Below, one piece after another: positions 35,597 through 49,357 of a stretch of 64,000 nucleotides of DNA (position 1 is its first letter; each line of letters begins with the position of its first letter). Made by a program: the position numbers and the translations under genes. Below the pieces are notes generated by a model. The model was not told where the DNA came from. It saw only the letters and a list, made by a program, of their open reading frames with translations, and did no database searches. Origin of the DNA: Camelus dromedarius (taxonomy: Eukaryota); contig NC_087436.1 of assembly GCF_036321535.1 (NCBI RefSeq), positions 64,544,001 to 64,608,000 on the forward strand. Direction: 5' to 3'.

Positions 35597-36685
35597 TTTG
35601 TTTTTTTTGTTTTTTTTTTTTTTTAATTAAAGTACAGTCAATGACAATGCATCAGTTTCTGGTGTACAGCACAATGTCCCAGCCATGCATATATACACAG
35701 ATATTCATTTTTATATTCTTTTTCATTAAAGGTTATTACAAGATATTGAATATAGTTCCCTGTGCTATACAGAGGAAACTTTTAAAAAATGTATTTATAT
35801 ATTTGTAGTGGCTAACATTTGCAACTCTCAAACTCCCAAATGTATCCCTTCCCACCCCCTTTCCCTGGTAACCATAAGATTTTTTACTATGTCTGGGAGT
35901 CTATTCCTGTTCTGTAGATGACATCATTAGTGTTGCCTTTTTTTCTTTTTTTTAGATTCCACATATGAGTGATATCATATGGTATTTTTCTTTCTCTTTC
36001 TGGCTTACTTCACTTAGAATGACAATCTCCATGTCCATCTATGTTGCTGCAAGTGACATTATTTTATTCTTTTTTATGGCCAAGTAGTATTCCATTGTAT
36101 AGATATACCACAGCTTCTTTATCCAGTCCTCTGTCAATGGACATTTAGGTTGTTTCCATGTCTTGGCTATTGTTAACAGTGCTGCTAAGAACACTGGGGT
36201 GCGTGTTTCTTTTTGAATTAAAATTCCCCCTGGATATATGCCCAGGAGTGGGATTGCTGTATCTTAGGGTAAGTCTATTTTTAGTCTTTTGAGGAATCTC
36301 CATAATGGCTGCACCAAACTACATTCCCACCAACAGTGTAGGAGGGTTCCCTTTTCTCCACATCCTCTCCAGCATTTACCATTCACAGACTTTCAAATGA
36401 TGGCCATTCTGACTGGTGTGAGGTGGTACTTCATTGTAGTTTTGGTTTACATTTCTCTGATAATTAGTGATATTGAGCATTTTTTCATGTGCCTGTTGAT
36501 CATTTGTATTTCTTCCTTGGAGAATTGCTTGTTTAGGTCTTCCTCTCATCTTTGGCTTGGGTTGTTTGTTTTTTCTTTTTAAGTTGTATGAGCTGTTTAT
36601 ATATTCTGGGAATTAAGCCTTTGTCAATCACATCATTTGCAAATATTTTCTCCCATTCCATAGGTTGTCATTTTGTTTTGCTTAT
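35597..36685 (-). mobile_element. Young 5'-truncated L1 (ORF2 end plus 3' UTR)
   Basis: Poly-T head on the plus strand, then the same 3' UTR/ORF2 sequence as the copies at 11.2-11.7 kb and 47.4-48.1 kb. Confidence 0.93.
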
Positions 36686-39105: not shown

Positions 39106-40379
39106 AACTCCTAGACTATATTTGAGGAAAAAAAATCTTTTTTCTAATGAAAATAAATAATAAATCTGCTAATACATTTTAGCTATTTAAAATAATTCAC
39201 ATAGAGGAAGATTATCCAATATACTAATACATTTATTTTTGTAATGGTTGTTTCTTGATGTGATTCCTTTTATTCTGTCACATTATGGATAGTATGGACC
39301 ATTATTTTTATAGTCAGTTTTCTCTGGACCTAAGCATTATCTGAGAGAGATATTTGATTGACTAATAACTGTATCTGTTAGCAGTTAGCAATTCCCTCCC
39401 CCCACAAAGCTACTTAAAAACAACAGCAGCAGCAATTCTAAATCTCAGATCTCAGTAGCTTCAAAAAATTATTAGGCTTTTACCTTCCACCAACATGGAA
39501 CCAGTAGCACTGTACTTGAGACAGGATTTTTAAGATACGATGTGTATCTGGAAGGCTGTTGTGCAGCATTTCAATCTACCAAAATAACCAACTAGTTTGT
39601 AATCAATACATTACATTAAATAAGGATTGAGTCCAGTCATAAAACAGCTTTTTTCTCATCCTCCCGTGTTTCTTCCCTGCCCTTATAGCTCCCTTCGCCC
39701 CACAATCATCGTTTCAGTCCTAAGAAGAATCCAATTTTTGAAATTCCCTATGATAGGAAAATTTCCAAACTTCATTGACAGTAAAATTTCACACTTTCCC
39801 TCTCCTCATTGCTCTAAGTGGAAAGCTTGCCGTGCGAAGTGGATGCCAAGCCTGCTTCCTCTCCATTTCCCCACCTGATGCTTCCCCTTGTCTTCTGTGG
39901 GCTGGAATGCCTGTAGCTCCTAAATGGTTCAGCATTGGAGGTGAAGAGGGGACGACAGATAAGGCACAGGAAAGGTCTTATGTGACAGGTTTTAATGGAG
40001 TAAAGAATAAATTCTCCTCTGGAAGATGGATAAAGATGAATCTCTGTCTTGGGCAGATTTTTAAAAACTGAAAAGTCCCATTGAGAAATATCTGACTGTA
40101 TTTCATGTGAAAACAAATGATGCATGTTCTCCCAGCTGGATGACTGCTTACATTTCCTCCTTGTACCCCTGGAAATTCAGTTGTATACCTCTTCTGCTGA
40201 TATAATTTTTCACCTCTAAAAAGTCACCTTGGACTTCCAGACCTCACACTGTCTCTGAGAAACTTACACAGCCTTGCTTTCATCTTTAGAGTAGAACTGT
40301 AGCTAACACCCTATGCATCTTGATCTTTCTTCCTCTGCTTTTTCCCCAAACTCCAGGGCGTATATATTAACCCTCCCAT

Positions 40380-40831
40380 TGTTATGGAAACGACAGGCCA
40401 GTCAAGAAACAAGCACCACTCGGAGGGTTGGAGTACTCAGATGTATTACGCCGGCGGGCTCAGAGGGGCTTCTGCTCCGAAGCTCTGAGCACCTTCAAGA
40501 CGTGCACATGAGGTTTTATAGGGTAAAGTACAAGCATGGGGTATTCGGCCAATAGGCATGGAACAGCTTTAGCAGCATTATCATCACAAAAGTGGAGGCG
40601 GGGAGGCAGCAAACCAACATTCCAAAGCCAGATATGTATCTTTGAGAATCCAGCTGGCTAGCAAAAAACATAAACAGCAAACCAACACTAATTAACTTAG
40701 ATTTACAACTTAGTCCAGCAGAACTCAGATTGGTATTCCAATACTTAGACTTGTTAGCCCAGCCCAGCCTCTCCTTCACATTCCTAGACCTGTGAGTTAT
40801 CTTGTTAGACCAGCCCAGCTTTTCCTTCACA
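40380..40831 (-). repeat. 3' LTR of the provirus
   Basis: Same length as the 5' LTR, with 10 substitutions and no indels by manual alignment. Preceded by the PPT. Confidence 0.97.
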
Positions 40832-40843
40832 TTCCCCCCTCTT
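40832..40843 (-). promoter_or_regulatory. Polypurine tract
   Basis: Minus strand AAGAGGGGGGAA directly abuts the TG of the 3' LTR. Confidence 0.95.
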
Positions 40844-40858
40844 GGTGCTTTCACAACT

Positions 40859-41449
40859 CTAGTTGGAGTAAGCATCATCACTTATCTGTTGCAGGGGCTC
40901 ATAATTGGAGGCTAACATCTGAAGTTATATAACCTCTATCCACTCACTGACCAAGCGGGTCCAGAAGTTTAGGACACAGGGCCCAAATAGCAGAACTGCA
41001 AAAAATCAAGAGTAAGGGACCTATGAACGGTGCCAGCCAGGAGGTCCAGCCCCAGGGGCCTGTCCATGGGCTCTTATTTAAAATATGTTTTCTCTTTTTA
41101 CTCGGTCTTGTAACTCTTGAACCATCTCTCTGACAATTTCTGATTGATTGGCATAAAAACAGCACTCTTCATTGTAGGAAGAGGCATAGTCCCCCCTCTT
41201 TGGCCATGAGTAAGTTACAGACCCCTCCTGTTTTGTAAAACCACCTCGGCCAGAGAGTCAATCTGATTTTGCAGAGTTCCCAGGGTTTCTGCTATTTGTT
41301 GGAGATCATGGCTGAATTCACTTGTAAGCTGGAAATACAGGTTGGTACATGGACCATTTGTCACCCGGTTCTGTGCAGGTGCATTGTACAGCCAAGGAGA
41401 GTGAGGGCATTAGCGTCAGTAACATCAGCCTTATGATTATCTTAGACAT
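40859..41449 (-). pseudogene. env: ERV env: signal peptide plus TM subunit, SU deleted
   Basis: MSKIIIRLMLLTLMPSLSLA-VQCTC leader, then a jump near 41348 to TM. TM has the heptad repeat and ISD (LQNQIDSLAEVVLQNRRGL), CX6CC (CLFLQ/EECCFYANQS) and the membrane anchor WLAPFIGPLLLI...FGPC. Several frameshifts. Confidence 0.93.
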
Positions 41450-41613
41450 GATGCTGCAGTGATGGCACTAATTATAACAAGATATAAAATAGCTATCAGG
41501 ATTCTATGGCCTATGTTCCAGTTAGGTGTGGCGGCGCTAGCTAGCCCCACTGCTAATACGCAGGCTAGTATGGCAAACAAGGAAATAGGCAAGGGAGCAC
41601 AAAAGAAATACAT
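41437..41613 (-). CDS. Small intact ORF (58 aa) with two hydrophobic segments between pol and env; putative accessory membrane protein
   Basis: MYFFCAPLPISLFAILACVLAVGLASAATPNWNIGHRILIAILYLVIISAITAASCLR*. It is shorter than any ORF in the provided track. It starts 23 nt after the pol stop and overlaps the env ATG. Confidence 0.5.
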   Translation of the reverse strand: MYFFCAPLPISLFAILACVLAVGLASAATPNWNIGHRILIAILYLVIISAITAASCLR

Positions 41614-41636
41614 TTAACAGCTGCGTTGAGCTTTCC

Positions 41637-41894
41637 TCAAGCTTCGGCCGTGTGTTGACTAGCCAGCTTCTGGATGTGGCTAGAGCAGGGCTTGTCGATC
41701 CTTTTCTGGTCCCTCTTGATCTTGATCTTGAGCGGGTCTCCCGGGACACACTCAATTTTCCAGGGACCCTCTGTCTGAGGTGAAGTCGCTCTCTTAACCC
41801 TGGAGTGGTGGATCCAAGGGATGACTCCTGCAACTTTAACAGCGGTAGGGGTGGTTAATACCACTAAATATGGTCCCTTACAGTGAATAATGGC
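41637..41894 (-). pseudogene. pol: ERV integrase C-terminal (GPY/F) fragment
   Basis: KGPYLVVLTTPTAVKVAGVIPWIHHSRVKRA...DPLKIKI, fused directly to the protease fragment. Confidence 0.92.
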
Positions 41895-42132
41895 ATGTGT
41901 CACTAGATGGCCCCCTACTCGACAGGATTGTGGTTGGCAGAAATGGCGGGCAGTTGAGTCCCCAGTAGCCCCTATAATAGTCGCCTTTTTCTTGGTCAGG
42001 GGGGCTACAGGTTTGGTCACCACAGACAGAATACTCTGCTCCTGGGTCTACCATAAAAGTCATTGGTTGGCCCCCTATAAACATTTTGACCTTGGGCTCC
42101 CGGGGGCCCAGGGGCAGGGACCGCGGTCTCTC
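41895..42132 (-). pseudogene. pro: ERV protease, N-terminal part
   Basis: In frame after the gag amber codon: EPKVKMFIGGQPMTFMVDPGAEYSV (active site DTG is DPG here). After a frameshift it reads VTKPVAPLTKKKATIIGATG...VGGHLVTH. Confidence 0.92.
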
Positions 42133-43896
42133 CTATTCTGAGTCGACTCCAGCCAGTCCGATGTGATTACTGGCTGGTGGCTCCAGCTGATAAGTAGGCC
42201 TTTTGAGGGGTGCTCTCTTTCCATCCTTTCTGTTTGGGCACTCGTTCTTCCAGTGTCCTGTCTCCCAGCAGTATGCGCACTGGTCTCGGCCCAGGGGCAT
42301 CCGTGGTTGGGGTCCCCTCTTCCGGGGTGGTGCAGGATTCTGGCTGAAGCTTGTTTTTCCCAGGGCTGCTGAAAGGAGTGCGGCTTTCTGCTTCATTCTC
42401 TGGTCTGCTTCTCGTTGGGCTTCCCGTTCTCGGTTTACAAAAACTTTGCTACTTCCAGCAGCTGTGTAGCGTTCATCCCTGCGAATCCATCCAGTTTTTG
42501 GAGTTTCTGGCGTATATCTGGGTGTGATTGGGCTACGAAGGCAGCGTTGACCATCCGCTGGTTTTCTTGGGCCTCAGAATCAAAAGGAGTGTAGACTTGG
42601 AATGCTTCACATAGTCTCTCATAGAAGTCAGTGGGGGTCTCGTCTGGCCTCTGGGTCACCATGGTCGTTTTAGACATGTTAGTTGGCTTCTTGGCTCCTG
42701 CTCTTAGCCCTTGTAGGATGGCTTCCTGGTACTCACACAGCACTTCTCTTCCTTCTTGGGTGTTAAAGTCCCAATCTGGTCTGGTGTCAGGGGCATGTGT
42801 CATGGCCCACCCCTCAACATCCATTGTGTCCCCAGGGGCTCGGCCCTGCAGCCATTTTCGTGCTTCAGTGAGAATGCATCTCCTCTCCTCTGTATTGAAA
42901 AGAGTCAAAAGCACCTGGAGGACATCCTCCCAGGTGGGCTGGTGAGAATGGAAGATAGACTCTACGAGGTAAATCATAGCCTGCGGCTTGACAGCCTGAT
43001 TACAGTCGTCACCACCAAGTAGAAATCATCGTGGGCTGGACAGAGACCAAATATTTGTATGACTTTGCAGCAGAGCCCAAGGCTGTCCCAGCATCGCTTC
43101 AGGACTGGGCAGGGGCCGGCGCTCCCCGACAGTTGCCATGGAGGCGGCGGCGGCTGAGGTGGAGGCGGTGCCGGGGCTGCGGGGGCTGCTGCTGCTGCTG
43201 TTGCTGGGCGGCTTTTCAGAGTAGGAAGGAGTATGATGGCACCAATTAAGAAGGGCTGTAGTGCTAAAGGATTGGTAGCAGAGTACGGGGTGCCCGGGCC
43301 GAACAGTCCCGTTTTCCCCAACTTGTTGCAGCCCTTGTGTCTCCTGCAGCGGCATTTGGAGGGCCGGTGGTGCTGGCTTCCCGGCTTGTGCTGAGCGGAG
43401 TCTCCTTCCTACCGGCTCAGGCTGGGGGCTGGGCTCTGCCTCTGGGTCCTCAGGCTGGGGAGGTGTTGGTGCCCCGGGGGCATACGGAGGGGGTAGACAT
43501 ATCTGTCTTCTGCATCTCCATGGAAAATAGGCTTTTTTCTCTCTGTCTTTTTGGCCTGGACTGGCTGGGCTGCTAATATCTTGCATTGTCCAGGTCCATT
43601 GGAGCAGAACCGAATCCATGGGGTAGAGTCTGGGCGATATTTAGCCAGGAGTCAATGTAAGGGAATTGATCTGGGTGGCCTGGGGTTCCAGTGATTATTT
43701 GATAGACTGCTCACACTGTTGCTAGGTCCAGAGTTCCTCCTGAGGGCCACTAGACTCCAAAGGCCGGCCATTCAAGCTCACACAAAGTGCGGAGCCTGCC
43801 AGGGGTCATTCAAATTCCACAGTCTCTTGAGAACCCCTTTTTGAAATTCTTAATCATGCAGTCTAGAGTGGTGGGTTTCGACTTAGAGCCTCCCAT
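42133..43896 (-). pseudogene. gag: ERV gag (MA-p12-CA-NC), disrupted
   Basis: MGGSKSKP myristoylation start, LCELEWPAFGV*WP matrix motif, PPPY late domain, CA HQPTWED, MHR QRPDETPTDFYERLCEAF, single CCHC knuckle [14 protein letters not shown] and an amber TAG at 42133-42135. It has 3 stops in MA, at least 3 frameshifts and a 225-nt host insert. Confidence 0.96.
42990..43207 (-). pseudogene. ATXN7: Captured fragment of host ataxin-7 mRNA inside gag
   Basis: Translates, in shifting frames, to AQQQQQQQPPQP / [33 protein letters not shown] / [23 protein letters not shown] / DCNQAVKPQA. This is colinear with the recalled ATXN7 N-terminus (polyQ...[30 protein letters not shown]...[35 protein letters not shown]). 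Confidence 0.95.
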
Positions 43897-43899
43897 TTT

Positions 43900-44380
43900 T
43901 TAGATGTTTGGGAAGGTAGCCTTTATATCTTTTCTTTCTTCACTCCTCAAAACACTGAGTTCCCAGAGAGACTGCTCTCTTGCTGGGTCTCTGAGTTGTT
44001 TGAAGGCTAATTTGGCCAGGGAGTCTGGGTTCCAGTCACAGCTGATGTCTCTGGAGCTCAAGGCCTCAAGCAGTTCCAGGGACTTTCTTCATTAAATCCT
44101 GTCTATATCCTGAACTAACATATCAGGGGCGTGGGACTGACGGCAGATGGTAAAACAAATGGACTAGTAAAGGGACCTCCAAGGCCGGGTGAGCCCGGTC
44201 CTGAAGGAATTCATCTTCTAAACTTGAGTCCTGGGGGTCTGGGGCTAGGCAAAAGGGGCACTACTTGGGTCTGTTCTGTAGGGAAACACTAAGTCTCGGG
44301 TGTTCTGTAACAGAATCAGGTAGGAGACTTTTCAAAGAAATAGCATCCTAGCCTCCGAGGGCACAGGGGCGTTGACTCAT
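43900..44380 (-). pseudogene. Decayed pre-gag ORF in the long leader
   Basis: ATG at 44380 gives MSQRPCALGG*DAISLKSLLPD...RPK*CPFCLAPDPQDSSLEDEFLQDRAHPALEVPLLVHLFYH. After a frameshift it reads DMLVQDIDRI**RKSLELLEALSSRDISCDWNPDSLAKLAFKQLRDPAREQSLWELSVLRSEERKDIKATFPNI*, ending one codon before the gag ATG. Confidence 0.5.
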
Positions 44381-45018
44381 TGGCTGTCTATGTCCTTTTC
44401 CCTCCCAGTGTGGCCACCCTGTGCCGGTGTCGCAGACAAGACAAGGGAGGGTTTTCGTTGCGTCCGCCTGGCCGCTCCCCTCGCGGGGACGAAGGTGCCT
44501 CTTAGCTTTGGCGGGTCAGTATAAGCTGCTGACTCCGATCGGGACCCTGAGGGACCGATACCGCCCTGAGCCGTATGAGGTCACCATGGAACCGCAGGTT
44601 GGGACTCACTCGAACTCCGTAGCAGAATGCCGTGGAGCTACAAACTCGAGCCTGATCGCACACTTCACAGGCCGCTCATTCACTCACACACACACACACA
44701 GAGGTTAACAACATTCTTCCCACCAATACCAATATCCTGTTTCCTGTAGGAGAGGATCAGCCTCCTCTTCTGTCCAATGGGACAGGACCTGATACCTCCC
44801 GGGGGTTCCTCCCTTGTCCGGATGGCCACCTGGTGAGTCTGTCCGTCCCTCCATGGAGTCTGGATCTGGTTGTAGCCCAGCCACCCGGGGGCCGAGTTGC
44901 TGTCATGAAAGAGAACCCGAAATACCGTCGGGCGGCGCCATCTCGTTCGCTGCCGGAATCCCGTCCCCCGGTCGGCCGGAGCCACCAGTCCGGCGGCTCA
45001 GGGGGCCGGCGTGGTTGT

Positions 45019-45036
45019 ATATCACTGGGGCCTCCA
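45019..45036 (-). promoter_or_regulatory. Primer binding site, tRNA-Thr-like
   Basis: Minus strand TGGAGGCCCCAGTGATAT, 4 nt after the 5' LTR. It matches 16/18 to the recalled complement of a tRNA-Thr 3' end (TGGAGGCCCCAGCGAGAT). Confidence 0.85.
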
Positions 45037-45040
45037 GAAA

Positions 45041-45492
45041 TGTTACGGAAACAACAGGCCAGTCAAGAAACAAGCACCACTCGGAGGGTTGGAGTACTCA
45101 GATGTATTACGCCGGCGGGCTCAGAGGGGCTTCTGCTCCGAAGCTCTGAGCACCTTCAAGATGTGCACATGAGGTTTTATAGGGTAAAGTACAAGCATGG
45201 GGTATTCGGCCAATAGGCATGGAACAGCTTTAGCAGCATTACCATCACAAAAGTGGAGGTGGGGAGACACCAAACCAACATTCCAAAGCCAGATATGTAT
45301 CTTTGAGAATCCAGCTGGCTAGCAAAAAACATAAACAGCAAACCAACACTAATTAACTTAGATTTACAAGTTAGTCCAGCAGAACTCAGATCGGTATTCC
45401 AATACTTAGACTTGTTAGCCCAGCCCAGCCTCTCCTTCACATTCCTAGACCTGTGAGTTATCTTGTTAGACCAGCTCAGCTTTTCCTTCACA
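45041..45492 (-). repeat. 5' LTR of the provirus
   Basis: Minus strand reads TGTGAAGG...CGTAACA and is followed by the PBS. TATAAAA at 45175-45181, CCAAT at 45210-45214 (plus strand), R hairpin at 45119-45151. Confidence 0.97.
45175..45181 (-). promoter_or_regulatory. LTR TATA box (second copy at 40514-40520)
   Basis: TATAAAA on the minus strand, about 25 nt upstream of the R-region hairpin. Confidence 0.8.
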
Positions 45493-47381
45493 CCATGAAT
45501 CCTTTCTCAATAGGTTTAAATGAAAGGGAAGCAATGCCACAACTCTTCAGTACCTTAAATACACTTGACGGTGGCACAGCTCACCCTTCTCACTGTAGTG
45601 TGTTCTTCATGGTCTCATCACTTGTGCAAGCTCTTACTCAAGAACATCTGCAATCTACTGACATCAGATTTGTCTGCTCTGGAGCTAGTCAGTCTGAACT
45701 TAGCGTATATGTTCTCTCCGTCAGGAGGAACTCAGATGCTATTGGTACTGGCCTAAAGCTACTTCACTCACTTCCTTCCTGTCCATAGTAAGGCTGGAAA
45801 GCACTTATATTTCAAAATGCCTCCAACCTTTCCAGTATGCCTTTTGAAACATCATAATTAAGGAACTCCCTGTACAGCCAGACTTCACTGAAGAGTCCTT
45901 CCACGTCATGGCATTAACTAAAATGCATGTCTCCCCCGAGCACACCCTCAAGCCCACTTGAGGGAAGATTATGTTCTTAGTCTGTCGTAATTCTGTTTTA
46001 GGGATTAAAGGTAGTGTCACATTGATCAACCATCCACGTGCTTGCTGAATAACAAAATTAAACAAGGCTAAAGAAGAACCTTCTGAAGCTCTTGGCATTC
46101 AAGTATATTCCCTGAGGGTCAACTATAGGCACAGTAGATATTATATACAGACTCTATAAAAATCATTTTGACTTTGTTGCAGCTTCTTTTCATTACAACA
46201 TAGAAAATTCTTGTGTACTTTGCCTTCAAATTCTATTTCCTAGATTTAAAAACATTGAGAAGGTAGTTTGATGTTAGCCAATATCTATTTTTTAACACAT
46301 ACACTAAAGAATATTTGCATTATAACTGGTTAGATTAAACCAAACAGAAACTTACTTCTAAATGTAAAATTTTTTGAGATAATCGTATCAACACCCAAAG
46401 GTAATTTAAAGAATTAAAAGGAGGAGGAAGACCATTATAAGGGGAAAGAGAGGCAGGAGGTGGAAAAGATAACTGTGTGGGAAGGTATTCAGCCAGGTGA
46501 ACTAGGAGTAGGAATTGAGAAAGGTAGTAAGGAATGAAGCCAGAGCAAATTTCACTTGGTTAGGTAGAGATCCATCTTAGGAGTCAGACTTATTTTGACT
46601 CCCTGCAGTACTTCTGAGAAGTTGCTTTTGGTAGTTACTAGCATTGCCCTTGCAATGATGCAGTACTTTTTTTTTCTTCCAAACCATTACCAAACAAATG
46701 AATTTAACTGAAGTTGATTTTAAAGAGGATCTAATGTAGTCTAAGATCAGATACTGTGTATAGACTTCAAAGTAGGACTGTAAAATCAACTTGAATTGTG
46801 CATTAATGGTATACAGAGTCTGTTCAGCAACACATTAGACTAGTAAGTTTGTCAAATGTTTACCATAAAATATGAGCAAAGAGTTTTATTTTGCTGTTTG
46901 AAGTTGTTCCACTGAGAAAGAGCAGTATCATTTTTTAAAGTTATTTGAATAACCCTTATCTTAAAGTTTTACCAAATAACTTTGGAATACTGGTAATGGA
47001 TTTTTGCCTTCATGATAAAGGTGAATTTATATACCTTTTCATCTTCATAGGAAATGTCACTTAATCAAAATGTTGCCATTGTGTGTTTTTGATGACAGTT
47101 ACTTGAACATATACCATATTCCAAAAAAGAAATAAAACTAAAATTATTTTATAAAACGGTACAGCAGAGAACCTTTTAAAATTATTTTCACATTCTAGAT
47201 GTCTTTCATAATACGCAGGTTGATATGAAATGTCAGTCTTTCATTAGGTCAGCATAATATATTACAGATTGATTTTTGTTGTTGTTAACAATTTTCTGAT
47301 TAAATATATAGGATCATAAGTGGTAATATACTTAATATAAATAAGTTATTATTTTGATGTGATAAATGCAATATTATTCTT

Positions 47382-48152
47382 TTTTTTGTCTATGTATTTT
47401 TATTGAAGTATAGTTAGTTTACAATGTTGTGTCAATTTCTGGTATATACTATAATGCTTCAGTCATACATGAACATACTTATATTAGTTTTCATATTCTT
47501 TTTCACCATAAATTACTACGAGATATGGAATATAGTTCCCTACTGCTATACAGTATGGACTTGTTATTTATCTATTTTATAGATATTAGTATCTTCAAAT
47601 CTCGAACTCCCAATTTATCCCTCCCACCCCCACTCCGTAACCATAAGTTTGTTTTCTATGTCTGTGAGTCTGTTTCTGTTTTGAAAATAAGTTCATTTGT
47701 CTTTTTTTTTTTTTTTTTTTAGATTACACATGTAAGTGATATCATATGATATTTTTCTTTCTCTTTCTGGCTTACTTCACTTAGAATGATGATCTCCAGG
47801 TCCATCCATATTGCTGCAAATGTCATTATTTTTGTCTGTTTTTATGGCTGAGTAGTATTCCATTGTATAAATATACTACAACTTCCTTATTCAGTCATCT
47901 GTTGATGGACATTTAGGTTGTTTCCATGTCTTGGCTATTGTAAATACTGCTGCTATGAACATTGGGGTGCATGTGTCTTTTTGACTTAAGTTTCCCTCTG
48001 GATATATGCCCAGGAGTGGGATTGCTGAATCATATGGTTAGTCTATTTTTAGTTTTTGAGGAATCTCCATACTGTTTCCATAATGGCTGCACCAAACTGA
48101 ATTCCCACCAGTAATGTAGGAGTGTTCCCTTTTCTCCAGATCCTCTCCAGCA
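47382..48152 (-). mobile_element. Young 5'-truncated L1
   Basis: Flanked by the perfect repeat TGATAAATGCAATATTATTCTT (47360-47381 and 48153-48174). L1 3' UTR/ORF2 sequence. Confidence 0.95.
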
Positions 48153-49357
48153 TGATAAATGCAATATTATTCTTGATAACATTGCTATATAAGGTTTTAT
48201 CTCAGTAAAATAAGAAATTTGAGACAAATATATAAGTCCCAATAAAATAAGAAATTTGAGACAAACTCAAAGAACATAAGATAGTCTGTATAGAACAATA
48301 CGAGCAGAAGGGTTTTTTTCCCTCTCTGTTGATTACTTAGCAAATTTACATAATTCAATCCAGAAATGCAAGCTATACCTTTTAGCATGTATTAGTATTT
48401 ATACTCCTTTCCAGTGCTATGCCAGTTACTCAATTTTTACATGGTTATAATAATTAGACACATATTGTTGGATCTTGTATGTTTTCTCTTTTTTGTCTTA
48501 GATCTTGTGTAAACTCTTAGATATATCTGTGTAGCTTATGTGTTTTTCACTTTTAGTAGCAATAATCTATGGCCATTTAAGCCATTCTCAAACTGTGTGT
48601 GTATGTCTCTTCATCTCCTCCCTAATATACAGCATGCTATACATCACTCTATATAAATATATGGATTTCTTTTGTAAAATTTCCTTGTGATATAGTCCCT
48701 TAAATGGAAATATGAAAAGAAAGGTTATAATTTTTTTCCATTAACAAACTAATAATAGGACTGCATTTTAAAATGCATACTACCTTTTCTATTACCAGTG
48801 CCATTATTACCCTATTGTCCTTTAACTCTACTATTTGTTATAACTTCCAAATTATTCTTTAAACCTCTTTCTTTTTTTCCTTTTATATTCTATATTCTAT
48901 AGCCAAGTTATTCTCCTGAAAACAGCACTTCATTCTCTGCTCATAAACCTCAACAGAAGTTTTAATTTCTAATTTAGTAGGCAATTACAGTCCTTAGCAA
49001 GTCATTCAAATTTTTGGAAAGTATCACTTCACCCTACTTTTGTAGCTTTGCAACCCAAATTTAAATGCCTTCCATTGGTACTGTTAGTCATCAGAGTACT
49101 GCCAATCATTCAAGAACCATTTGAAAGGTCTGTCTTTAACTTACCAAACAGATACCAAGTGCCTACTGTGTAGAAGGCATTGAGAGATTCAAAAATGAAA
49201 GAAAAACAAAACACAACATAATTTCTGTTCTTGTGTTACTCACTGCACTGATTTGAGATTTAAAATGACACAGTACTATAATTGTTGACAGCCTAAGTAG
49301 AAATTGGTTTGTTTTGAATGATGAGTAGGGGCACACTAGAGATAAGAAGTTAGGGGC

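Follow-up and report, generated by a model that had tools for sequence, protein, structure and literature searches.

The window, a 64,000-nucleotide (nt) stretch of dromedary (Camelus dromedarius) DNA from contig NC_087436.1, carries on its minus strand a gammaretrovirus-like endogenous retrovirus (ERV) whose gag gene is interrupted, in the part coding for the capsid, by a short segment of the host gene ATXN7. A preliminary description of this DNA had read the segment as a piece of spliced ATXN7 messenger RNA (mRNA) that was co-packaged with a retroviral genome, copied by template switching of the reverse transcriptase (RT) and carried into the germ line. By comparing the window copy with the host gene and with sister proviruses in the same assembly, we find that the donor was indeed a spliced RNA, most likely a back-spliced circular RNA (circRNA). 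The insert, its parts and the homology at its edge are listed below, with X, E1, E2 and E3 denoting a host 5'-untranslated exon and coding exons 1 to 3, respectively.

42990..43214, minus strand: ATXN7-derived insert of 225 nt, in a 5'-truncated form; 207/225 nt are identical to host exons (92%)
43083..43214, minus strand: piece of ATXN7 coding exon 1, E1:91-287, with the CAG tract and ASTSAAA...MLGQ; from alignment to host exons
43063..43082, minus strand: last 20 nt of ATXN7 coding exon 2, E2:50-69; from alignment to host exons
42990..43062, minus strand: piece of ATXN7 coding exon 3, E3:1-77, with a 4-nt deletion, 21 residues; from alignment to host exons
42979..42989, minus strand: 11-nt homology aagccgcaggc between gag KPQA and ATXN7 exon 3 KPQA; 10/11 identical

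The insert interrupts the capsid motif SEKPQAMI, with aagccgc at each edge. The split had been recognized in the preliminary description; we measured it at 43214-42990 and found five insert-free relatives unbroken at this site. The four peptides quoted there are likewise present in minus-strand translations, and Q7PPQP is encoded by cagcaacagcagcagcagcag ccc ccg cag ccc on that strand. Upstream of the insert, the gag frame runs into ATXN7-derived residues and then into a stop, and the other two frames of the insert hold a 23-residue peptide and DDCNQAVKPQAMIYLVESIF. Relative to the host exon, the exon 1 piece has internal gaps of 9, 53 and 3 nt. The exon 2 piece is bounded upstream by a 94-95-nt E1/E2 deletion and downstream, between 43063 and 43062, by the exon 2-exon 3 splice junction. 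Today the insert appears to be a decaying passenger without a reading frame, and we assign no present function to it.

In the host assembly (2.3 Gb, 171 contigs), a single match to the insert lies outside ERVs: the host ATXN7 gene on contig C17, around which 200 kb were compared. The first part of the insert matches host coding exon 1 at 100 of 113 nt; this exon translates as MSERAADDVKGEPRR...Q9... and is followed by gt. For the last part, 81 of 90 nt agree with an exon situated 38 kb further downstream. The 20 nt before IFG in the insert come from a 69-nt host exon between the two (...NREVMGLCRE/gt). At the protein level, the host exon 1 translation aligns with residues 1-108 of the PDB chain 7ktr_N, 'Ataxin-7' (E 5.7e-47), and the window frame GLC...YLVV aligns with residues 124-150 of the same chain (E 1.7e-4). 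The gag-frame open reading frame (ORF) that includes the insert gave no PDB match at E <= 0.01, and a Pfam scan of the insert-bearing ORFs matched no family. The donor gene is host ATXN7, as had been proposed from the encoded peptides. Because the insert crosses the exon 2-exon 3 junction, and these exons are 38 kb apart in the gene, the donor was a spliced RNA; the junction falls within 43030-43080, the interval in which it had been expected.

When the insert, extended by ~10 nt of gag at both ends, was used as a query, 46 rows were returned (49 candidates, 40 scored), two of which are the host gene and five second pieces of loci already counted. At least 39 ERV loci, on 13 contigs, thus hold the insert at one gag site, at 74-100% identity. 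Their presence in the host genome bears out the proposed germ-line entry. Searches with the two gag flanks yielded 88 and 76 candidates, with 40 scored in each; among the 40 rows scored for the downstream flank, 24 are insert loci and 16 lack an insert match. In 10 of the latter, the two flanks are separated by 14-23 nt, the spacing expected without an insert, giving at least 10 insert-free relatives; the other six have no upstream-flank row and were counted as neither insert-free nor insert-bearing. Three of five insert-free relatives that were read give an uninterrupted SYSEKPQAMIDLVESIF, and two give S*KPQALI. Since the motif is unsplit in these copies, SEKPQAMI belongs to gag itself, and it was an existing ERV lineage into which the ATXN7 piece was inserted. 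The preliminary description had foreseen a search for further proviruses with the same gag/ATXN7 junctions, and for relatives without them; both kinds exist. Contig C37 holds five insert-bearing loci and two without an insert match, one of them insert-free by flank spacing. Loci also cluster locally at 69.49-69.76 Mb on C9 and at 41.05-41.63 Mb on C13, and on C5 three upstream-flank matches fall within 230 kb (94.30-94.52 Mb). The C37 loci and the C9, C13 and C5 clusters could be segmental duplications instead of separate integrations.

Thirty loci were compared in detail. Their inserts measure 218-248 nt (12 copies), 295-305 nt (5 copies) or 397-463 nt (13 copies, hereafter the long copies). 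The 94-95-nt E1/E2 deletion is common to all 30, as is the 3' junction, which points to a single origin of the insert. The preliminary description had itself named an assembly chimera as a possible refutation. That explanation is excluded by the recurrence of the same junctions at at least 39 loci on 13 contigs; in addition, at least half of the words sampled from one long copy occur in each of 14 public runs, which carry two organism labels, a word-index result only, in which the best run may be the assembly source. With PDB and nucleotide matches far beyond chance, a fortuitous resemblance to ATXN7 fares no better, and we give chimera and coincidence together a negligible probability.

The long copies differ from the window copy at their 5' end. 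In all 13, gag ...TCTGAA is followed by AAAC(C/T)GCAGGC ATTTCAATCACATTATG, which is exon 3 sequence from beyond the point where the insert ends. This exon 3 tail leads into ~98 nt of other sequence and then into the first base of coding exon 1. The 98-nt stretch has a counterpart on C17 (88% identity), which precedes coding exon 1 by 13.3 kb on the same strand. All 22 candidates from a search with this stretch were scored: the host exon occurs once, and the other 21 are ERV loci, all of them insert loci. The host sequence, exon X, is a 5'-untranslated exon that reads ttctttatag/GTCTGAAC...AAGAAAAG/gtaactgg. The longer form of the insert (~430 nt), recognized by exon X, is present at 22 of the 39 loci, and the back-splice junction was read in 13 of them. 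With their ag/gt flanks, the host exons measure 98 nt (X), 333 nt (E1), 69 nt (E2) and 105 nt (E3), summing to 605 nt; all four lie on one strand of C17, with E3 38 kb downstream of E2.

We aligned every insert (n = 30) to the 605-nt host circle opened at AAACCGCAGGC and scored the junctions within +/-12 nt. All 13 long copies begin at the AAACCGCAGGC site, go round the circle and return to the same site, in the order exon 3 tail, X, and coding exons 1, 2 and 3. The junction of the E3 donor with the X acceptor is gap-free in 13/13, with 1-8 mismatches in 24 nt (one mismatch in L028); its boundaries agree with the host ag/gt sites, and it is absent from the truncated copy in the window. The E2-to-E3 junction is gap-free in 29 of the 30 copies. 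At X-to-E1, one of 13 long copies is gap-free over the scored interval and the other 12 align at 17-22 of 24 columns: in 11 (22 of 24 columns), a 2-nt gap lies a few bases inside E1, off the junction, so that the ATXN7 ATG is lost, and in L019 the gap there is larger. Through the 2-nt gap, the ATXN7 start context AGAATG reads AGTG in most long copies (for example L013-L016 and L019-L022), and L028 retains AGAATG. The E1-to-E2 junction is lost in 30/30 through the 94-95-nt deletion, which runs from E1:285 to E2:46 and is bounded by TGG. A further E1 gap of at least 45 nt (~53 nt), within E1:118-196 and between two GCCCC words, is seen in 23 of 30 alignments.

Across the 30 aligned copies, we found neither poly(A) nor any sequence from outside X, E1, E2 and E3 in the inserts. 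The insert ends directly adjoin gag. The exact non-colinear junction is the criterion by which Dong et al. recognize pseudogenes of circRNA origin, and the restriction to circle exons and the lack of poly(A) are further traits of such copies. Because X occurs outside ERVs only at the host exon, no present genomic arrangement gives a linear splice from E3 to X. The long insert is thus most likely exactly one turn of a back-spliced ATXN7 circle, with a circRNA rather than a linear mRNA as donor. Of the earlier proposal of a spliced mRNA, splicing stands and linearity is probably wrong.

Two linear donors have to be weighed against this. A linear, spliced and co-packaged ATXN7 mRNA could have entered gag through two template switches, its exon order being scrambled later by duplication or rearrangement within the ERV. 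The window copy taken alone would suit such a history, because it is colinear (E1, E2, E3) with a forward splice junction. mRNA capture by long terminal repeat (LTR) elements at microsimilarities is established, according to the available portion of a review (PMC5408686). However, the rearrangement would have to fuse the last base of exon 3 exactly to the first base of X, in 13/13 long copies, and to set two copies of the homology apart by exactly one circle length. No aligned insert extends beyond exon 3 or upstream of X, and the most diverged lineage is found among the long copies. We therefore regard this history as unlikely. A linear RNA with repeated exons, made by trans-splicing or from a since-lost ancestral tandem duplication of X-E3 in the host gene, would yield the same E3-to-X junction, and Dong et al., in the accessible text, warn of other sources of non-colinear junctions (PMC4897178). 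Against it, the present genome contains X only once outside ERVs, no repeat was found in 200 kb of the host locus, and the insert is exactly one unit long; we judge this explanation slightly less likely still.

The position of the circle within gag is defined by a short homology. AA(A/G)CCGCAGGC underlies both gag junctions of the long form, and gag GAA AAG CCG CAG GCT ATG (KPQAM) and exon 3 GTC AAA CCG CAG GCA TTT (KPQAF) meet there in the same codon phase. No gag bases are lost or duplicated beyond the 11 nt. The one variable base distinguishes groups of copies, two of which, A-long and B-long, are lineages of the long form defined below. Both repeats read AAACCGCAGGC (AAA, the ATXN7 form) in 6 of 13 long copies, namely 5/6 A-long copies and L021. 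The 3' repeat has AAG in 6/7 B-long and 16/17 truncated copies, and AAG is present in 5/5 insert-free copies. The telling point is the apparent entry and exit at one and the same point on both molecules.

The provirus that houses the insert in the window has the following further features.

40380-45492, minus strand: gammaretrovirus-like provirus of 5,113 bp, from paired LTRs and a target-site duplication (TSD)
45041..45492, minus strand: 5' LTR, 452 bp, TG...CA; from LTR-LTR alignment
40380..40831, minus strand: 3' LTR; from repeat detection and LTR-LTR alignment
45493..45496 and 40376-40379, no strand: TSD CCAT, 4 bp; flanks ...tcccat/TGTT and CACA/ccatga
43215..43900, minus strand: gag 5' of the insert, p12 and capsid N-terminus, ending ...HHTPSYSE; from an ORF
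42435..42989, minus strand: remaining capsid, Gag_p30 (PF02093, E 5.5e-47, profile positions 16-195/201)
42133..42573, minus strand: nucleocapsid region with a CCHC zinc knuckle (zf-CCHC E 0.0015, under the Pfam cut-off)
41637..42047, minus strand: N-terminal protease fragment fused to the integrase C-terminus, ...IIHC/KGPYLVV... (MLVIN_C E 2.6e-10, and an ORF)
41215..41409, minus strand: env transmembrane fragment (TLV_coat E 2e-11)

The two LTRs differ by 10 mismatches and no gaps across 452 bp (97.8% identity), and the 4-bp TSD has the length typical of gammaretroviruses. The PF02093 score of 160 bits, against a cut-off of 27.4, identifies a p30-type capsid. Together with the TG...CA LTR pair, the 4-bp TSD and pol and env remnants of the murine leukaemia virus (MLV) type, this places the provirus among class I ERVs. 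The gag segment 43215..43900 is colinear with every sister copy checked, and the nucleocapsid region is out of frame with the capsid. The provirus is strongly deleted: protease is joined straight to the integrase C-terminus, the fused ORF marking an internal pol deletion with its joint near 41873-41894, and env is mostly lost. RT-, RNase H- and integrase-like ORFs in sister copies were recognized by eye. A presumed primer-binding site lies just inside the 5' LTR (45021-45040, minus strand; sense ...TGGAGGCCCCAGTGAT). Three co-linear direct-repeat blocks with 87-91% identity, ~11.77 kb apart, flank the provirus region (36000-36375 and 47767-48153); we take them to resemble the 3' end of LINE-1.

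Read in the gag frame, the long insert reaches its first stop at codon 23-25 in 10 of 13 copies. L015 has a stop at codon 3 in addition to that at codon 25, and L022 and L030 have indels in X and a later stop. In none of the 30 copies read is gag open and in frame through the insert. The same in-frame TGA is present in host exon X, so the recombinant was unable to make its own capsid from the outset.

All sampled insert-bearing copies are internally deleted, in three ways. In the six A-long copies, capsid is joined to mid-RT (read in L028), and colinearity with the window ends at 42765 in 6/6. The seven B-long copies have protease fused to the RNase H end, IIHC/KGHQK (read in L014), with colinearity ending at 41873-42055. 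In the 5'-truncated class (17 copies including the window's), protease is joined to the integrase C-terminus, IIHC/KGPY. Of the 16 other truncated copies, 13 extend across the pol-deletion junction of the window copy: 12 are colinear over all 1,490 nt compared, and L024 crosses the junction to position 1356. L018 reaches position 1356, L008 reaches 1221 in this first comparison and spans the junction in a separate one, and L010 stops before it. The deletion sites (~2840 in L014, ~1946 in L028 and ~41880 in the window) each mark one lineage. Two of the deletions have a common left boundary, the IIHC of protease, and their right sides fall on KG motifs (KGHQK at the RNase H end and KGPY in integrase), which looks as though a further jump between short repeats had lengthened one deletion.

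From the gag flanks alone, with the insert excluded (30 rows, 923 columns), we computed a midpoint-rooted maximum-likelihood tree. In it, A-long branches off at 100/99 and the B-long copies make up an unresolved comb; among these, 16 of 17 truncated copies group in one clade (96/90), with L010 outside it. The truncated inserts mostly begin at E1:91, GAA/AAGCCGC/CCAGCA. These relationships suggest that the window copy is not the primary product of the capture but a younger, 5'-truncated derivative in the youngest lineage of a multi-copy family. Three features that the long copies also have tie it to the circle: the E2-to-E3 junction, the 94-nt deletion and the 3' junction. Neutral substitution in mammals proceeds at 1-2.2e-9 per site per year. 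At such rates, the 2.2% LTR divergence would date the window integration roughly to a few to ~10 million years ago, and A-long terminal branches of 0.06-0.10 would place the capture tens of millions of years ago; CpG decay inflates both estimates.

Taken together, we consider it probable that a gammaretrovirus-like ERV lineage gained one full turn of a 605-nt ATXN7 circRNA in the N-terminal capsid region. A back-spliced ATXN7 circle (X, E1 with its CAG tract, E2 and E3) would have been present at reverse transcription, probably inside the particle. RT would have jumped from viral gag RNA onto the circle at the 11-nt homology, copied one lap and returned to viral RNA at the same homology. The ~53-nt and the TGG-bounded 94-nt internal deletions may reflect further microhomology jumps, at or soon after capture. 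With the capsid killed by the exon X stop, the recombinant presumably spread via proteins of insert-free relatives, reaching at least 39 loci and splitting into three pol-deleted lineages. In the window copy, ~205 nt at the start of the insert (exon 3 tail, X and E1:1-90) would then have been lost at a GCCGC microhomology. The clean insertion into capsid at a microhomology fits the RT template switching invoked in the preliminary description, but its template was probably not a co-packaged linear mRNA.

The same circle could also have been joined to gag at the DNA level. Here, complementary DNA (cDNA) made from the circRNA by LINE-1 or another cellular RT would have been primed at, or repaired into, an integrated provirus at the same microhomology, with transcription and amplification of that provirus afterwards. 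Annealing of a nicked DNA end to the circle would likewise yield a homology-bounded, one-turn structure. The gag site GAAAAG has the T-rich complement CTTTTC, which we take to be loosely like a LINE-1 nicking site, and fragments near the provirus are presumably L1-like. However, there is no poly(A), and no TSD beyond the homology itself; 6/13 long copies have AAA in both repeats, as opposed to the AAG of gag in 5/5 insert-free copies; and the two extra microhomology-bounded internal deletions resemble a series of template jumps such as retroviral reverse transcription typically makes. We see a DNA-level join as rather improbable, although it is the strongest of the competing accounts, and prefer a join that was probably made in the particle by viral RT over one made by another RT or by repair on the integrated provirus.

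Several observations weigh against a one-lap capture by viral RT. The sequence alone fits both viral RT in the particle and another RT or repair acting on a genomic provirus. The window copy lacks the back-splice junction, and the circRNA reading draws on sister copies and on their probable shared origin. In the host, the four-exon circle is predicted from sequence, and human papers, in their accessible text, name other exon sets. The flank tree is midpoint-rooted and contains insert-bearing copies only, and one truncated copy, L010, is placed in the unresolved comb and not in the truncated clade. The ~53-nt E1 gap is unseen in 7 of 30 alignments, including those of repeat-expanded copies, which are unreliable. 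Finally, the homology is unexceptional: the circle and the internal region of the provirus share 28 exact words of 8-10 nt, and the idea of an unusually long junction homology was rejected on this ground.

The CAG tract has followed its own course in these copies. The host gene has nine CAG repeats and the window copy five pure ones (seven with one CAA; 43178-43206). Pure runs number 26 in L009, 31 in L023 and 21 in L025; in L011 a run of 26 is interrupted. The expanded copies are scattered over the flank tree (four changes for five rows). This pattern suggests repeated, independent CAG expansion outside the gene. Regions of CAG variation are found in the inserts of L009, L011, L023, L025, L024 and L012. 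In L018, the extra length is a tandem 12-nt unit in the stretch coding for ASTSAAA, and not CAG growth. The idea that the 295-305-nt copies lack the 53-nt deletion was rejected, their extra length consisting of the CAG runs of 21-31 (host 9) and the 12-nt repeat of L018.

Pseudogenes derived from circRNAs were defined by Dong et al. (2016, Cell Res) through their reversed exon-exon junction. The accessible text gives 33 high-confidence pseudogene copies for mouse circRFWD2, with circSATB1 and others as further sources, and reports LTR sequence to be enriched beside 42 mouse circRFWD2 copies by a mechanism called 'mysterious'; the legend of its Figure S1 marks MMERVK10C-int sequence (PMC4897178). 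A 2017 review states, in the portion available, that this enrichment 'may suggest LTR-mediated retrotransposition', and presents template switching at microsimilarities as a way in which mRNA is captured (PMC5408686). Human ATXN7 gives rise to several circRNAs of 336-1106 nt, all with the CAG exon, according to the accessible part of PMC13313202. Those that are named in the available texts comprise exon 3-4, or 'exon 2 and 3' (PMC13313202, PMC10786880, PMC6507340), and the exact X-E1-E2-E3 circle is not among the human ATXN7 circRNAs documented in those parts of the three sources. ATXN7 is absent from the searchable supplement text of Dong et al., in which the tables are perhaps not included (PMC4897178). 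A search of full-text literature, with most subscription journals outside its scope, found neither ATXN7 in an ERV nor ERV capture of a circRNA. The circRNA retrocopy as a kind is thus already known, and the ATXN7 member and its resolved architecture appear to be new. The preliminary description knew of no earlier report; this holds, within that search, for an ATXN7-bearing ERV, but not for the kind, given the mouse circRNA-derived pseudogenes beside ERV sequence.

How a circRNA, without ends and without poly(A), is reverse-transcribed and inserted was left open in 2016, as far as the accessible text goes (PMC4897178). Here, one genome keeps both gag junctions, the back-splice junction and insert-free relatives, so that a mechanism can be read from the sequence: one lap, entered and left through one 11-nt homology in gag. 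We regard as evenly balanced the broader proposition that retroviral RT uses circRNA as a copy-choice template, one lap via one homology, that this is a general route for circRNA-derived pseudogenes, and that it produced here a gag-dead, helper-dependent lineage with an expanding CAG tract. If true, copy-choice on circRNA would explain how such pseudogenes enter and multiply in genomes, including mouse circRFWD2 beside MMERVK10C. It predicts that the mouse copies show the same architecture, and that single-cycle retroviral vectors pick up engineered circles at engineered homologies. The gag-killing host insert did not prevent the ERV lineage from multiplying, and its copies provide natural replicates of the disease-linked CAG tract of ATXN7 (spinocerebellar ataxia type 7, SCA7) evolving outside the gene.

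In oncogene transduction by acutely transforming retroviruses, spliced host sequence comes to lie in a defective retroviral genome that needs a helper. The ATXN7 family shares these traits. The parallel drawn in the preliminary description nevertheless fails in its particulars, because the ATXN7 insert replaces no viral sequence, yields no Gag-host fusion frame (0/30), has single-point, homology-bounded junctions and a non-colinear exon order, and belongs to an element that is germ-line and ancient. ETn, mobilized in trans by MusD, is a non-autonomous ERV family. It resembles the family described here in that its proviruses are internally deleted, defective in coding and at least as numerous as their competent relatives; in our case, the lineage-marking defect is a host circRNA insert in gag, and mobilization in trans is probable. 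LTR-mediated retroposition of mRNA (Tan et al.; maize Bs1) is similar in that host RNA joins the cDNA of an LTR element at short homologies and the chimera moves with the LTRs of the element, as it does here; in the available portion of the review, those cases are colinear mRNA pieces, in contrast to the circularly permuted exons and back-splice of the ATXN7 insert (PMC5408686). The closest counterparts are the circRNA-derived pseudogenes of Dong et al., which in the accessible text share the reversed junction, the lack of poly(A), the restriction to circle exons, the multiple copies and the LTR flanks. Compared with these mouse copies, which are treated there as pseudogenes, the ATXN7 segment comes from another gene in another host, lies inside the gag of a class I, gamma-like ERV, is resolved as one turn bounded by one 11-nt homology, and has multiplied as part of a defective provirus (PMC4897178).

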